From IMG/VR virus record IMGVR_UViG_3300031088_000782, positions 96,001 to 160,000 of that record: 64,000 nucleotides of DNA; one strand, given 5' to 3'. Below the pieces are notes generated by a model. The model did no database searches, had not been told where the DNA came from, and saw only the letters and a list, made by a program, of their open reading frames with translations. Source of the DNA: a virus (lineage: Duplodnaviria; Caudoviricetes). Positions 49,134 through 63,818 of the stretch are shown here, one piece after another; the stretch's first letter is position 1, and each line of letters opens with the position of its first letter. Made by a program: the position numbers and the translations under genes.

Positions 49134-49206
49134 TCCCCTGTAGCTCAATTGGCAGAGCATTCGGCTGTTAACCGGAGGGTTCTTGGTTCAAGTCCAAGTG
49201 GGGGAG
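49134..49206 (+). tRNA. trnN: tRNA-Asn(GTT)
   Basis: Cloverleaf; CT-GTT-AA; U1-A72, G73. Confidence 0.95.
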
Positions 49207-49403
49207 CGCGGCTGAAAAATCATTTGGCCTTTATTAAATATATGCGAAATAATTGAAGCACCACGCAATGAAACTGTTCAAAATATTCCTTTTCGCAGGT
49301 TTATGATTTTGTTTTGAATAAGTCTTGTAAGATAATGATTTCTATGATTCAAGGTGGAACAAAGATAAATAATCTTTGCTTGATAATATTAATCATTATA
49401 TTT

Positions 49404-49475
49404 GCCCCTCTAGCTCAGAGGCAGAGCAACGGTCTTTTAAACCGTGGGTCGAGATTTCGAAATTCTCGGGGGGCA
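49404..49475 (+). tRNA. trnK: tRNA-Lys(TTT)
   Basis: Cloverleaf; CT-TTT-AA; U53.U61 mismatch. Confidence 0.9.
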
Positions 49476-49480
49476 CAATT

Positions 49481-49692
49481 GGGACTGCACACACTGTCGA
49501 TGTGAAGCGGTCCTGAGTTAAACCACTGATCTGCCATGTGTAGAATTCAGTATCTTTCTCCGTTGTATCGCAGTATGACGGAGAATGCTTATCGCTATCT
49601 GACAGTAGCGGTAATAGAAAACGAGTTATTGATGCACGTCTGTCAGCGTCATGGATAATCATTGCGACAATGACCGGCATGGATAGTCCGGT
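49481..49692 (+). ncRNA. unknown structured RNA
   Basis: Five or more hairpins and a 7-bp loop pseudoknot ctgacag/ctgtcag. Confidence 0.55.
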
Positions 49693-49709
49693 TAAAAACG
49701 TTTTCATAT

Positions 49710-49782
49710 TCCCTTATAGCTCAGTTGGCAGAGCGTTTGACTGTTAATCAAAATGTCCCTGGTTCGAGTCCAGGTGGGGGAG
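49710..49782 (+). tRNA. trnN: tRNA-Asn(GTT)
   Basis: Cloverleaf; CT-GTT-AA. Confidence 0.95.
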
Positions 49783-49863
49783 CACAGTGACAAAAATTGC
49801 TGTAACAATGCTCTAGAAGCGTTACGTAAATAATTGATAAAATATTCATCAATTATTTAATGT

Positions 49864-49937
49864 AGCTGGGTGGGGAAGTTAGGTATCCCGTCGTGTTCAT
49901 AACTCGAAGATCGTTGGTTCAAATCCAACCCTAGCCA
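49864..49937 (+). tRNA. trnM: tRNA-Met(CAT), initiator-like
   Basis: TT-CAT-AA; unpaired A1/C72; U.U in anticodon stem. Confidence 0.8.
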
Positions 49938-49967
49938 CTATTTTTAACAAATATTGTTGAAAAATAT

Positions 49968-50042
49968 CCAGATATAGGAAAGTTTGGTCATTCCGCCTAG
50001 TTAGGGGCTAGGAGATCGCAGGTTCGAATCCTGCTATCTGGA
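49968..50042 (+). tRNA. trnP: tRNA-Pro(AGG)
   Basis: CCAGATA/TATCTGG; TT-AGG-GG; A73. Confidence 0.92.
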
Positions 50043-50179
50043 CAAATGTTATAGAAGTATCATAAGCCATGAGAAAATATAACATTGATAAAAGTTGAAC
50101 ACCCTCGTAAAAATGTTTGCGAATATATTCTAGGCTAGTTTATATTGGGCTGAACGCGCATTTTCTTTTATCGCCTTAA

Positions 50180-50252
50180 TCCTCTATGGTGGAATGGTTT
50201 AACACTCTTGGCTCTTAACCTTGAGATCTAGGTTCGAATCCTAGTGGGGGAA
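50180..50252 (+). tRNA. atypical tRNA, CTT anticodon in a Gln-like body
   Basis: CT-CTT-AA; two U.U in anticodon stem; T arm as in the Gln tRNAs. Confidence 0.55.
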
Positions 50253-50254
50253 CT

Positions 50255-50327
50255 GTGGTCGTAGCTCAATTGGTAGAGCGTCTGCTTGTGGCGCAGATGG
50301 TTGGGGGTTCAAGTCCCCTCGATCACC
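50255..50327 (+). tRNA. trnH: tRNA-His(GTG), no encoded G-1
   Basis: TT-GTG-GC; C73; T at -1. Confidence 0.9.
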
Positions 50328-50346
50328 CTATGGGACGGCAATCCCT

Positions 50347-50485
50347 AGTGTTTTATCATCGGGTCTGTTTTGCCGAACAGAATAAGATGTAGCCAACACT
50401 TTAAACATGGCTCCCTAATGGTCTAGTTTGGTTAGGGCACATCCGCGTGGAGGGTGGGGCGTAGGTTCAAATCCTACTTAGGGAA
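50347..50485 (+). ncRNA. repeat unit 1: conserved stem motif + TCCCT..AGGGA tRNA-like element
   Basis: Motif 50347-50407; tRNA-like 50412-50485 with loop GC-GTG-GA and A73. Confidence 0.55.
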
Positions 50486-50521
50486 CGGTTTCGAAAGGAA
50501 CTACTGAAATGCGCAATTTCG

Positions 50522-50689
50522 AGTGGATAGTATCATTGGGTGCTGTTTATCTTAAATAGTTAAGCTGACTATGCAGGTGAGACAGTATAAGATGTAGTTA
50601 CCACTATAAACAAAACTCCCTGATAAGTCTCAAGAGGTAGAGCTGGCAATACGCGTCCGGTTGTGGGTTCAAGTCCCACTCATAGGGAA
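50522..50689 (+). ncRNA. repeat unit 2: conserved stem motif + degenerate tRNA-like element
   Basis: Motif 50522-50612; tRNA-like 50617-50689. Confidence 0.55.
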
Positions 50690-50707
50690 CAATTCTGAAA
50701 AGAATAT

Positions 50708-50780
50708 AGGTGCGTAGCTCAATTGGTAGAGCAACGGTCTCCAAAACCGTAGGTTGCTGGTTCAAGTCCAGTCGCACCTG
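50708..50780 (+). tRNA. trnW: tRNA-Trp(CCA)
   Basis: CT-CCA-AA; G73. Confidence 0.95.
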
Positions 50781-50803
50781 CTTGATTACAAAAGTAATCA
50801 TAT

Positions 50804-50874
50804 GCGGATATGGTGTAGTGGTAGCACAAGAGCTTCCAACCCTCTTGGTCAGAGTTCGATTCTTTGTGTCCGTG
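50804..50874 (+). tRNA. atypical Gly-like tRNA with a 9-nt anticodon loop
   Basis: AAGAG-CTTCCAACC-CTCTT; G73. Confidence 0.55.
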
Positions 50875-61830: not shown

Positions 61831-61878
61831 CAAAACAGTGAAGTAGAGACATCTATGTTTCTGTTTTAGAATAAATTG

Positions 61879-62039
61879 AAGAATAGTGATCCATGTTGGT
61901 AGAGATAGGGCACTAATGACCTAAGTTTTGTATAAGATGTTATTCAAAATATGGCGTGAATGTCCTAAAAGATGTAAAATAAAATGAAAAGATTATGGAT
62001 GCAGTCTTATACACGCAGGTTCGATTCCTGTTATTCTTT
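61879..62039 (+). ncRNA. 161-nt elongated tRNA-like RNA
   Basis: AAGAATA/TATTCTT acceptor, T arm, 10-bp internal stem. Confidence 0.5.
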
Positions 62040-62048
62040 AATTATTTT

Positions 62049-62133
62049 GGAAGTGTGGCTGAGCGGCTTAAGGCACTCGCTTGGAAAGCGAGCATAGGTA
62101 ACACTATCGCAGGTTCAAATCCTGTCACTTCCG
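62049..62133 (+). tRNA. trnS: tRNA-Ser(GGA)
   Basis: TT-GGA-AA; variable arm; G73. Confidence 0.94.
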
Positions 62134-62183
62134 CGTTTATGAATATTTAAAATAATATTATTGAATATTTTCATAAATAATAT

Positions 62184-62257
62184 GGGGATGTTGCATAATG
62201 GTAGTGCCTCTGCCTTCCAAGCAGACGGTGCGGGTTCGATTCCCGTCATCCCCTCCA
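62184..62257 (+). tRNA. trnG: tRNA-Gly(TCC) with encoded CCA
   Basis: CT-TCC-AA; U73-CCA. Confidence 0.94.
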
Positions 62258-62406
62258 GGGACGCGTGAACATTAAATTAAGTCCAAGTTGCGATGGATAC
62301 TGGTTTAGTGCTGTTACACTAATATTTTAGACCGCTAATCTAAAATTCGAAATTCAGGACAGAAATGTTGCTGATACTTGGGATTCGATACCCAAGCGTT
62401 CCACCA
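62258..62406 (+). ncRNA. 149-nt tRNA-like RNA with Ala identity and encoded CCA
   Basis: GGGACGC/GCGTTCC (G3.U70), A73-CCA, T arm TTGGG/CCCAA. Confidence 0.65.
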
Positions 62407-62468
62407 ATTTAAAACAATGAAATAATATTGTTAAAATTCTTGTTCATACATTTTACAAGAACAAATAT

Positions 62469-62541
62469 GGGGGTTTAGCTCATCCGGTAGAGCATCTGCT
62501 TTGCAAGCAGAAGGTGAGGGGTTCAAGTCCCCTAACCTCCA
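62469..62541 (+). tRNA. trnA: tRNA-Ala(TGC)
   Basis: G3.U70; TT-TGC-AA. Confidence 0.95.
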
Positions 62542-62542
62542 C

Positions 62543-62617
62543 AGCTGTGTAGAGAAGTTCGGTTATCTCGTCAGGTTCATATCCTGAAGATCGTGGGTTC
62601 AAATCCCACTCTAACCA
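62543..62617 (+). pseudogene. tRNA-Met(CAT) copy with a disrupted acceptor stem
   Basis: Body identical to 51042; acceptor AGCTGTG/TCTAACC has 3 mismatches. Confidence 0.7.
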
Positions 62618-62645
62618 CGATTGTCAAAAAATATTGAAAAATAAT

Positions 62646-62793
62646 TTGACAATAATTATTAATTATGCTAAGATTAACTTGTTAAATCAAATTGAGGACT
62701 TATCAAGAAGATAACGAGATTATAGATTTGACAAGCGTTAAAAAATAGTTTATAATTAATAATATAAAGCGGTTTGGAAACTTAATAGTGGAA
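62646..62793 (+). promoter_or_regulatory. tandem P1/P2 promoters with a conserved spacer motif and boxA-like leader
   Basis: TTGACA-17-TAAGAT; TTGAGGACTT motif; TTGACA-17-TATAAT; GCGGTTTGGAAACTTAATAGTGGAA. Confidence 0.7.
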
Positions 62794-62800
62794 AATATAT

Positions 62801-62874
62801 AGGAGTGTAGCTCAGTTGGTTAGAGCGTTTCGCTGATAACGAAAAGGTCATGAGTTCAAGTCTCATCATTCCTA
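62801..62874 (+). tRNA. trnI: tRNA-Ile(GAT)
   Basis: CT-GAT-AA. Confidence 0.95.
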
Positions 62875-62928
62875 CGCAAAGCGGTTGTAAGTGACGCGGG
62901 TGCAATGTGTGCGGCGGAACTTTCGTAT

Positions 62929-63010
62929 GGCTCCTTGGCGAAATTGGTAGACGCGCCAGATTTAGGTTCTGGTATCTTAGGATGTGCGGGTTCAAATCCC
63001 GTGGGGGCTA
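62929..63010 (+). tRNA. trnL: tRNA-Leu(TAG)
   Basis: TT-TAG-GT; variable arm. Confidence 0.93.
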
Positions 63011-63204
63011 CGAAAAATGTTTGTTAAATAAATAAAGCTGGTTTTCTTGTTTTTAAATCAGTGAAAGATTTAACAAAGAAACCTTAGCGGGTGAATTTTT
63101 CCAAGAGGAAACAAGTGAGGAAAAGCATTTTTTATTATATATTAAATAATAACTAAGTTTAATATATGTTAAATTTTCAGTAATTTTTAAAATTATTGAA
63201 AAAT

Positions 63205-63277
63205 GGCTCTGTAGCTCAGTTGGAAGAGCATTCGATTGAAGATCGAAGGGTCGACGGATCGAAACCGTCCGGAGCCA
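63205..63277 (+). tRNA. trnF: tRNA-Phe(GAA)
   Basis: TT-GAA-GA; T loop ATCGAAA. Confidence 0.93.
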
Positions 63278-63430
63278 CGGTGTGAGCAGATTGCAGTCTG
63301 ACTTAACACAAGAAAAAGAACATATCTCTTTCTCACACTAGAGGTTCTTTTTCGCTATCTTTCCTATCGACACTGCAATGTTGGTATAGTTATTTTATTG
63401 AATAAACTTGGGGAAAGGGTTTATTCTTAT

Positions 63431-63504
63431 GCCCCATTGGAGTAGCGGTTTATCTCGTCTCCCTCTCACGGAGAAGAACACCAGTTCGAATCTGGTATGG
63501 GGTG
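63431..63504 (+). tRNA. trnE: tRNA-Glu(CTC)
   Basis: CT-CTC-AC; G73. Confidence 0.93.
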
Positions 63505-63745
63505 CTTTTGTTCAAAGCGTAGTGTAAAGCAAGGAAGGTCCAATCGGACTGGAATGGGAACAGAGTTCTTGGAAGCACACTCAGTTATGGTTGAGAAGGC
63601 TTGTGTTAGTTGGTTGCACGCGAGTAAGCTTTGAACAGATATTATTGAATAAAGGTTGAAGCCAGCTAATAAAGCGGTTCTTTATATAAGATAAAGAATG
63701 AACGGTCTCACTGACAGATACCTATGGAAAGTCTGTCATCCTTAT

Positions 63746-63818
63746 GCCACCTTAGCTCATCAGGTAGAGCAGCGATTTTGTAAGTCGCAGGTGATCGGTT
63801 CGAGTCCGATAGGTGGCT
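63746..63818 (+). tRNA. trnT: tRNA-Thr(TGT)
   Basis: TT-TGT-AA. Confidence 0.94.

Follow-up and report, generated by a model that had tools for sequence, protein, structure and literature searches.

Organization of the tRNA array

The array of transfer RNA (tRNA) genes described here is situated in a stretch of 64,000 nucleotides (nt), hereafter called the window, which corresponds to bases 96001-160000 of the IMG/VR virus record IMGVR_UViG_3300031088_000782 (309,534 bp in total). The tRNA genes are separated by spacers, many of which are strongly folded and several of which contain small structured RNA elements with compensatory base changes, either derived from tRNA or unrelated to it. Coordinates refer to the window, unless they are designated as genome positions or preceded by the name of another sequence.

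49134-63819, plus strand: tRNA array, 57 tRNA genes for all 20 amino acids (ARAGORN; Infernal with model RF00005)

A cloverleaf was accepted as a tRNA if it reached the RF00005 gathering score of 29 bits and possessed an anticodon loop of 7 nt; with Infernal, 56 of the 57 ARAGORN genes reach this score. Both programs thus bear out the array of about 15 kb, entirely on the plus strand and covering 20 amino acids, that an initial annotation had described from the sequence. Its figure of about 52 canonical tRNAs is a fair one, since around five of the 57 genes are weak or non-canonical: Sup-tta at 56966 (31 bits), Tyr at 52410 (30.9 bits), a gene called as '???' at 61485 (39.7 bits), His at 50412 (45.6 bits), and Gln at 55426. 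Almost no encoded CCA had been noted, and among the array tRNAs it is indeed found in a single gene, Gly(tcc) at 62184-62257 (Infernal ends); a homolog of the CCA-adding enzyme is encoded 8.4 kb past the window (genome position 168410-168796). The reported absence of tRNA-Leu(taa) is literally true for the window, but the gene is situated at genome position 160078-160162, 78 bases past the window end, with a second copy at 163722, such that its absence is a window-edge effect. The array continues beyond the window to genome position 175763, and the whole record contains 66 tRNAs and one transfer-messenger RNA (tmRNA). An adenosine at position 34 is found in four of the tRNAs (Pro-AGG at 49968, Arg-ACG at 52047, Leu-AAG at 55554, and Thr-AGT at 57389).

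Folding of the spacers

The tRNAs exhibit a mean GC content of 53%, the spacers range from 3 to 55%, and seven spacers reach at least 40%. For 36 spacers of 60-450 nt, the mean folding z-score against dinucleotide-preserving shuffles is -2.8, with 25 of them below -2, whereas 33 length-matched coding segments of the same window have a mean of -0.26, with only two below -2 (Mann-Whitney p 1e-9). The strongly folded spacers of the initial annotation are therefore real, and its description of the array together with its folded spacers is confirmed well beyond chance.

Four classes of spacers can be distinguished: promoter units, protein genes, tRNA-derived RNAs, and folds unrelated to tRNA. The perfect T-arm motif (a 5-bp stem, a TTCRANN loop, and G53-C61) occurs ten times in the spacers on the plus strand, as opposed to once elsewhere in the 309 kb on both strands. 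Compensatory changes, in families of two to four sequences each, are seen in seven elements, namely module A, 50042-50180, 63506-63640, 56840-56965, the leader upstream of the array, the pair of modules B and C, and the pair LI-1 and LI-2, all of which are described below. A comparison of the array with Rfam revealed no ribozyme, riboswitch, or known small RNA family up to an E-value of 5, and the small open reading frames (ORFs) that overlap structured spacers have no Pfam match.

Concerning the sequences used for comparison, an alignment-based scan yielded four related IMG/VR records (G001-G004; 189-438 kb, 45-50 tRNA genes each); a single-protein pattern scan of viral contigs for close relatives yielded none. 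Three Logan contigs were anchored on the helicase, two of which (L051 and L053) stop before the array, while L052 covers the first 15 tRNAs of its array; further related sequences likewise bear the prefix L. The order of the array is reshuffled among the relatives, and just four array spacers and the upstream leader have sequence matches there.

Permuted tRNA-like modules

53491-53569 (conserved tail to 53628), plus strand: module A, permuted tRNA-like domain; homologs in L001, L008, and L009, a weaker one in L013
53737-53920, plus strand: module B, two hairpins, the first at the 5' end, and then a long closing stem that encloses a permuted tRNA-like domain (53824-53897)
53999-54169, plus strand: module C, paralog of B, with a match to model R1 (see below) at 54072-54148 (33.7 bits, E 4e-7)

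By its predicted fold, module A is a circularly permuted tRNA without an anticodon loop. It begins with the 5' half of a closing stem, followed by the T arm, a 7-bp acceptor stem with a loop of 9 nt, the D arm, and the 3' half of the closing stem, and passes into a tail of 60 nt that is almost invariant in L001. The alignment comprises four sequences from three lineages (the window, L001, and the near-identical L008 and L009); 12 of its 21 pairs exhibit compensatory changes, and 93% of the cells are paired, compared with 32-46% in controls with slid partners. G3.U70, G1-C72, G2-C71, and A73 are invariant. A covariance model of this family (R1) yields 87-94 bits and also detects a permuted domain in L013, the most distant of the relatives (7045-7120, E 1.5e-10). 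Low scores of R1 at junctions between two tRNAs are false hits, such that only inspected hits above 33 bits were counted; they represent the 'dimeric tRNA' artefact that has also been described elsewhere (PMC4201824).

Module B is aligned by the Rfam model of YrlA with 31.4 bits (E 9e-5), the succession of T arm, acceptor hairpin, and D arm being matched exactly. Modules B and C, around 175 nt each, differ by compensatory changes at 14 of 32 pairs while the fold is kept, and the acceptor hairpin of C also contains G3.U70.

An exact-pattern scan of viral contigs for the tail of module A found nothing, and a blastn search of the module against 50,697 phage records gave no relevant match. A pattern built on its junction matched permuted tmRNA genes on over 20 contigs of marine phages, which places this junction close to the two-piece tmRNA family; a stricter pattern that includes the D arm matches, in the metagenome collection, this clade only. 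A reading of the tail as coding for a tag peptide was rejected as unsupported: the window and L001 hold a frame of only six codons (GCA AAC TTA GTG AGA/AAA GGC TAA), and the L008 lineage possesses a different tail, in which an indel of 2 nt breaks the frame. In the relative G003, an ORF with a cytidine/adenosine-deaminase fold adjoins module A (L009:12145-12621).

RNAs with folds unrelated to tRNA

50042-50180, plus strand: non-tRNA RNA filling the spacer between tRNA-Pro(agg) and tRNA-Lys(ctt); homologs at L055:9828-9965 (minus strand) and L052:16108-16245
56840-57037, plus strand: leader element (56840-56965, around 125 nt) fused to an odd tRNA (56966-57037, 'Sup-tta'); two copies in L055 (nhmmer)
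63506-63640, plus strand: non-tRNA RNA with a closing stalk of 10 bp; one homolog (L055:2670-2795, minus strand)
49477-49709, plus strand: GC-rich (44%) multi-hairpin spacer, a candidate RNA (z -4.69; none of 200 shuffles as stable)
60828-61021, plus strand: four near-perfect hairpins in tandem, a candidate only (folding z -8.3)

The RNA at 50042-50180 exhibits compensatory changes at 13 of 39 pairs among three homologs, including four consecutive double changes. Its covariance model R2 scores 140-164 bits and finds those three copies only; no copy was found in G001-G004, no match in Rfam, and nothing by an exact-pattern scan of viral contigs for its core. Blastn searches of this RNA and of the one at 63506 against the 50,697 phage records gave no relevant match either. 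In the window it is flanked by Pro-agg and Lys-ctt, in L055 by Pro-tgg and Pro-agg, which indicates that it travels as its own unit. In the RNA at 63506-63640, 10 of 31 pairs are compensatory, and seven of the ten stalk pairs are swapped.

The leader element at 56840-56965 exhibits compensatory changes at 20 of 47 pairs, and one of its L055 copies precedes a true tRNA-His. The odd tRNA that follows it in the window (31 bits, 36% GC) has the anticodon loop UCUUAAA, i.e., a UUA anticodon with a C at position 33; given this C33 and its membership in a family of His-tRNA-like genes that share a conserved element on the 5' side, it probably does not function as an ochre suppressor. No relative was found for either 49477-49709, which is overlapped by a minus-strand ORF without Pfam match, or 60828-61021.

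Insert-type tRNA mimics and degenerate T-arm elements

55684-55831, plus strand: LI-1, a 'handle' of acceptor (7 bp, CAATCAG/CTGATTG) and T arm around an insert of around 100 nt
61878-62040, plus strand: LI-2, paralog of LI-1, acceptor AAGAATA/TATTCTT
62258-62410, plus strand: RNA with tmRNA-like topology (sequence and fold of a single sequence only)
53411-53487, plus strand: AT-rich degenerate tRNA-like element directly 5' of module A, 7-bp acceptor AGGAATA/TATTCCT and T arm
50347-50690, plus strand: two tandem units, in each of which a non-canonical tRNA comes after a stem motif (TATCATYGGG ... AWAAGATGTAG)
57119-57388, plus strand: spacer containing an element of tRNA size with the acceptor TAAGCTA/TGGCTTA and a T arm at 57332 (single sequence only)
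59729-60410, plus strand: gap of 682 nt with three T-arm motifs at 59859, 59986, and 60076 (single sequence only)
61096-61246, plus strand: two T-arm hairpins (61105 and 61179), the first followed by a closed 7-bp acceptor-like hairpin, CGTATGG/CCATACG

LI-1 and LI-2 share the core CCTAAGTTT ... ATATGGCG, and their 7-bp acceptors are different at every pair. LI-1 is covered at around 97% identity by contigs of the sequencing runs X3 and X6 that skip its flanks. An interpretation of both elements as intron-containing tRNAs was rejected on account of inconsistent anticodon calls in the intron and low-threshold modes of ARAGORN. The RNA at 62258-62410 begins at the base directly after the CCA of tRNA-Gly and combines an acceptor GGGACGC/GCGTTCC, containing G3.U70, with A73, an encoded CCA, and a T-like arm; its interior consists of 120 nt of hairpins. 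Modules A, B, and C, LI-1, LI-2, and the 62258 RNA all score below the RF00005 threshold and are therefore not tRNAs.

Degenerate-looking T-arm elements comprise those at 50613-50690, 53411-53487, and 57300-57357, three in 59729-60410, and two in 61096-61246. The stem motifs of the tandem units (at about 50347-50401 and 50522-50606) occur in just these two copies in the 309-kb record, and are followed by a His-like tRNA (50412-50486) and by a tRNA-like element (50613-50690) with a T arm at 50663, respectively. In the element at 57300-57357, a D arm and an anticodon arm of normal form are lacking, and near 57220 another, weaker T arm is found. The three elements in 59729-60410 are, by their sequence, probably degenerate tRNAs, one of them with an Arg-like GCG loop.

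Promoters and leaders

53332-53360, plus strand: strict internal promoter, an example (pattern match)
51572, 52359, 52529, 52670, 55851, 59184, 59451, 60362, 60498, 62646, 62728, 63851, 63935, plus strand: starts of the other 13 strict promoters (pattern match)
48602, 48687, 48764 (48602-48792), plus strand: three promoter-like sites 5' of the first tRNA, each with 10 of 12 matches and a TG extension; two fit the strict pattern
48870-49060 (approximate ends), plus strand: conserved structured leader RNA, a candidate; nhmmer matches in L052 and L055

The strict sigma-70-type promoter pattern TTGACA-N16-18-TAnnnT occurs 14 times on the plus strand within 51572-63963. This corresponds to 0.68 sites per kb in the array versus 0.13 per kb elsewhere on the plus strand, i.e., to a five-fold density, and almost none is found on the minus strand. 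An A/U-rich hairpin precedes most strict promoters, and downstream of several a common leader is found, the 3' end of which reads AATAGTGGAAAA. At least four operons have a shared leader with the terminal sequence AATAGTGGAAAA(T)AT in the interval from the promoter to the first tRNA (51628-51642, 53395-53410, 59510-59526, and 62784-62800), and two of these four copies also have GCGGATTGAAAA upstream in common. The 14 internal sites argue against one punctuated transcript and for a chain of short operons, in which many of the AT-rich 'structured' spacers are hairpin-plus-promoter units.

The first 15 tRNAs (49134-51533) contain no strong internal promoter and, as judged by the pattern matches, are served by the promoter-like sites at 48602-48792. 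Between these sites and the first tRNA lies the upstream leader, an apparently non-coding core of around 190 nt (GTGATGACGCAATC ... CGCCGCTCATGCGGA), for which RNAalifold (alignment A11) predicts a conserved core with compensatory pairs.

Protein genes, cassettes, and upstream region

54348-55421, plus strand: HNH homing-endonuclease ORF, 357 amino acids (Pfam HNH; PHROG 10822, E 3e-35)
57456-58094, plus strand: ORF of 212 amino acids without Pfam or PHROG match
58348-59187, plus strand: GIY-YIG (SegE-like) homing-endonuclease ORF, 279 amino acids (Pfam PF19835; PHROG 314)

The HNH ORF is missing in close relatives: contigs of the runs X3, X6, and X7 join 54162 directly to 55425, which identifies the gene as a mobile insertion. 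The GIY-YIG ORF has a paralog downstream of the window. Equally missing in close relatives is the cassette 53410-53645, which holds module A (53409 joined to 53646 in X3 and X7), and close relatives possess a single module of the B/C type (53755 joined to 54018). Around 20 sequencing runs contain parts of the array, and no RNA run was listed for 52800-57500. When contigs of four DNA sequencing runs were compared with the array region, strain variation and indels were the only differences. In the hairpin at 53067-53097 (spacer 53045-53209), a related strain keeps the pairing of 53070 with 53094 by a swap from A-T to T-A, and two further changes there lead to G.U pairs.

Upstream of the array, the window encodes DnaB, RecG, a ClpB-like ATPase, ribonucleotide reductase, a PBP1-type enzyme with a PASTA domain, G5 and NlpC/P60 proteins, and several DUF4379 zinc-finger proteins, a gene set that fits a giant phage-like mobile element with a Gram-positive-type host. 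The PBP1-type transglycosylase/transpeptidase is complete and is accompanied on this mobile element by a separate protein with three PASTA domains (12497-14842 and 34990-36273). Three large paralogous proteins consist of repeated DUF4379 treble-clef zinc fingers (27416-31096 and 45302-47437); one of them has a Mom-like domain and another a weak, sub-threshold match to restriction endonucleases. For the SNF2 helicase of the window, at least 120 relatives with 53-84% identity are listed, several of them on contigs of 0.4-0.8 Mb. Its own copy is recorded on a contig of 681,645 bp, such that the element may extend beyond the 309 kb of the 'provirus' record.

Arrays of related elements

Curated non-coding RNAs are encoded within the corresponding arrays of sister elements. 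GOLLD RNA was identified in L009 (7979-8365), L055 (4936-5364, minus strand), and L054 (9621-10009, minus strand), with 214-231 bits versus a threshold of 150, and G001 and G003 each possess a second copy elsewhere. The array edge of a 420-kb relative encodes an RNase P RNA of bacterial class A with 148 bits (L013:2075-2436, minus strand; G004:C1:307574-307935), and G002 has a weak partial match to RNase P RNA at 167306-167563. tmRNA occurs in sister elements as well. Furthermore, an ORF of 527 amino acids with TROVE and vWA domains (Ro60-like) lies inside arrays (L009:5347-6930, corresponding to G003, and G001:C1:93795-95375) and matches TROVE proteins of the PDB with E 3e-25. Homologs of this ORF are common on phage-sized contigs, and one match in NCBI nr is named 'MAG TPA: ribonucleoprotein [Caudoviricetes sp.]'. 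The present 309-kb record yielded no match to TROVE (searched with the profile and with the relative's protein), GOLLD, or RNase P RNA. A search for Ro60-like proteins found none on a contig of this element's size, which is not proof of absence.

Interpretation

The array is rather probably a stable-RNA gene island of a giant virus-like mobile element, organized as a chain of short operons that combine tRNAs with at least ten small RNA genes, both tRNA mimics and folds unrelated to tRNA. On the observed genes, folds, covariation, promoters, and variation in synteny and cassettes, a course of transcription, processing, and function can be proposed. Each operon would consist of a sigma-70-type promoter, often a shared leader of around 40 nt, and one to fifteen tRNA genes without CCA. 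Two sorts of small RNAs would be transcribed with them. The first is derived from tRNA and comprises the permuted modules A, B, and C, in which a closing stem appears to take the place of the anticodon arm, as in the layout of YrlA and of the two-piece tmRNA junction, as well as LI-1, LI-2, and the 62258 RNA, in which a handle of acceptor and T arm would surround an insert. To the second sort, unrelated to tRNA, would belong 50042-50180, 56840-56965, 63506-63640, and the leader at around 48870-49060.

The tRNAs would be matured by host RNase P, 3'-end enzymes, and the element's own CCA-adding enzyme; as CCA is not encoded, it is presumably added after cutting. Cuts at the tRNA ends may also free neighbouring RNAs, and could in particular release those between the first 15 tRNAs, where a strong internal promoter is lacking. 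The mimics themselves may be recognized by the tRNA-processing enzymes. Since YrlA of Mycobacterium smegmatis, with its 7-bp acceptor hairpin, is cut by RNase P, modules A and C may become two base-paired pieces, and they could serve as alanine acceptors through G3.U70. The mimics would act by binding proteins that recognize tRNA, the likely partners being the Ro60-like protein in the sister lineage that encodes one and host factors in the present element. The HNH and GIY-YIG homing endonucleases, together with gain and loss of cassettes, would keep reshuffling the island.

The initial annotation regarded the tRNAs as processing punctuation that releases a cargo of non-coding RNAs. This part of its account is plausible but covers only part of the picture. 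In its favour, the spacers hold conserved, folded, non-decoding RNAs, several of which abut tRNA ends: the 62258 RNA directly follows the CCA of tRNA-Gly, the whole interval from tRNA-Pro to tRNA-Lys is taken up by the 50042-50180 RNA, and the 56840-56965 element extends up to the first base of a tRNA. A single punctuated transcript, however, agrees poorly with the 14 strict internal promoters. Likewise, a cargo unrelated to tRNA exists in the three RNAs at 50042-50180, 56840-56965, and 63506-63640, but most of the additional RNAs are derived from tRNA, and three gaps are protein genes. Mimics with their own T arm and 7-bp acceptor are predicted to be acted upon directly by RNase P, RNase Z, and the CCA-adding enzyme instead of being carried along passively.

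Several points weigh against a stable-RNA gene island. Covariation comes from two to four sequences per family and is thus suggestive, not statistical proof. Module B, LI-1, LI-2, the 62258 RNA, and most lower-tier elements are backed by paralogs or a single sequence only, and hairpin-plus-promoter units alone account for many AT-rich spacers with low z-scores. As to a link with YrlA, module B obtains its 31.4 bits against a gathering score of 69 and matches model positions 23-89 only; no Ro60 gene was found in this record, G002, or G004, and no RtcB in any of the five records. Moreover, some of the T-arm elements (53411-53487 and 59729-60410) look like decaying tRNAs by their sequence.

These last elements lead to an alternative in which the T-arm elements are functionless, decaying pseudo-tRNAs or recombination scars left by duplication, endonuclease-driven gene conversion, and deletion. 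The AT-rich degenerate copy at 53411-53487 and the three remnants in 59729-60410 fit such an origin, as do the reshuffled arrays with their few matching spacers, the indels at cassette boundaries, and the two homing endonucleases in the array, SegB of phage T4 being known to recognize the T-loop sequence GGTTCRANTCC (PMC2330249). On the other hand, all helices of module A are maintained by compensatory changes between elements that share just 68-71% identity in their helicases, with G3.U70 invariant, and B and C differ at 14 paired positions with the fold intact. The permuted order, which simple decay of one tRNA gene cannot reach, recurs in four lineages, and decay as an explanation of the T-arm elements is decidedly improbable. 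Still harder to credit is that the structure merely reflects base composition and the flanking tRNAs, with nothing present beyond a large tRNA array. Low-GC DNA readily forms long A-U hairpins, and three spacers have z-scores above -1; a compositional origin is nevertheless excluded by the dinucleotide-preserving shuffles and the coding controls from the same window, and independent covariation in seven elements speaks against it as well.

A stronger competitor, possible though unlikely, is that the spacer structures act in cis, as leaders, RNase III or RNase E processing stalks, terminators or antiterminators, or tRNA-tuning extensions, and are degraded after processing. Many spacers do consist of hairpin, promoter, and shared leader; the 56840-56965 element is situated directly 5' of a His-type tRNA in all three copies; the long stalk of the 63506 RNA resembles a processing stem of ribosomal RNA; and the motif pair at 50347 and 50522 stands each time before a non-canonical tRNA. 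Simple processing signals, however, need neither the T loop, nor the GG of the D loop, nor the 7-bp acceptor that modules A, B, and C keep. The 62258 RNA carries its own encoded CCA end, and the 50042-50180 RNA, placed between different tRNAs in the window and in L055, moves as a unit of its own.

Within the stable-RNA gene island favoured here, a more specific and rather improbable proposal is that of a family of split, alanine-type tRNA mimics, in which modules A and C, opened by RNase P, would gain a CCA through the element's own CCA-adding enzyme and the 62258-62410 RNA would carry one, and all would be charged by alanyl-tRNA synthetase via G3.U70. If true, these would be tmRNA-like molecules without an anticodon, their tag being absent or of six codons. 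Such split mimics could enter or block ribosomes, soak up host defence enzymes that target tRNA, or represent Ro-independent Y RNAs, and together with the covarying non-tRNA RNAs they would turn the tRNA arrays of giant elements into a general source from which new classes of functional RNA arise.

Huge phages and other giant elements are known for large tRNA sets, and the DNA between their tRNAs is mostly unannotated. In the present array, this DNA appears to hold at least ten conserved small RNAs without an Rfam family, including mimics that resemble Y RNA and tmRNA in a record where no Ro60 gene was found. The presence of GOLLD, RNase P RNA, and a Ro60-like protein in sister islands suggests a general role of giant-element tRNA arrays as islands of stable RNA genes. 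If so, the RNAs of such islands would rely on a common set of processing enzymes, with homing endonucleases rearranging their genes, and they would constitute a compact set of candidates for the takeover of translation by phages or for counter-defence against immunity directed at tRNA; the spacers of other phage tRNA arrays would then be worth mining.

Comparison with known systems

The organization of the array is in its gene content similar to the tRNA region of phage T4, in which eight tRNAs, the species I and II RNAs, and the GIY-YIG gene segB are derived from one precursor transcript of 1.75 kb (PMC2330249). Both combine a phage tRNA cluster with genes for stable non-tRNA RNAs, predicted in the present case, and a GIY-YIG homing endonuclease. 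Despite this similarity, the array is around seven times larger (57-66 tRNAs), and its 14 internal promoter-like sites argue for many transcripts, unlike the single precursor of T4. Furthermore, it contains at least ten additional RNAs of several architectures, mostly tRNA mimics, the species I and II RNAs of T4 having been compared by gene content.

Concerning YrlA (RF02553), modules A, B, and C share with it the order of T arm, acceptor-like hairpin, and D arm inside a closing stem, and their 7-bp acceptor resembles that of YrlA of M. smegmatis, an RNA that is cleaved by RNase P and to which CCA is added in vivo (Chen et al. 2014, PMC4201824). Apart from the low score of module B, they differ in that they are situated in a tRNA array and not in an rsr-rtcB locus, and in that A and C possess the alanine identity pair G3.U70. 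A TROVE gene is present in the arrays of G001 and G003, whereas no Ro60 gene was found in the present record. As to the Ro60-binding motif GNCGAAN0-1G (PMC4201824), read by eye only, module A has GATCGAAAAG, which does not fit, and L001 is without it.

With two-piece tmRNA (RF01851, RF04321), the junction of module A shares the T arm, the 3' acceptor strand, A73, a short linker ending in CAT, and the 5' acceptor strand GGG with G3.U70. However, module A possesses a true D arm and neither pseudoknots nor a convincing tag frame, it scores 21.1 bits against a threshold of 70 and 14.6 against 47, and the element already has a normal one-piece tmRNA. As judged by the models, membership in both YrlA and two-piece tmRNA fails on the score and on the defining partners or parts, whereas the architecture is shared.

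GOLLD and ROOL RNAs often occur near tRNA islands (PMC12286853), and large non-coding RNAs are known in or beside tRNA arrays of phages and mycobacteria (PMC12286853; Morgado et al. 2020, cited there, PMC7549688). Sister elements equally hold GOLLD (RF02032) inside the array; in the window, neither GOLLD nor ROOL was found, and the additional RNAs are small (70-190 nt) and without an Rfam family. The array is thus distinct from the known systems in that its YrlA-like RNAs occur where no Ro60 was found, in the number and kinds of its additional RNAs, in its many promoters, and in its scale.

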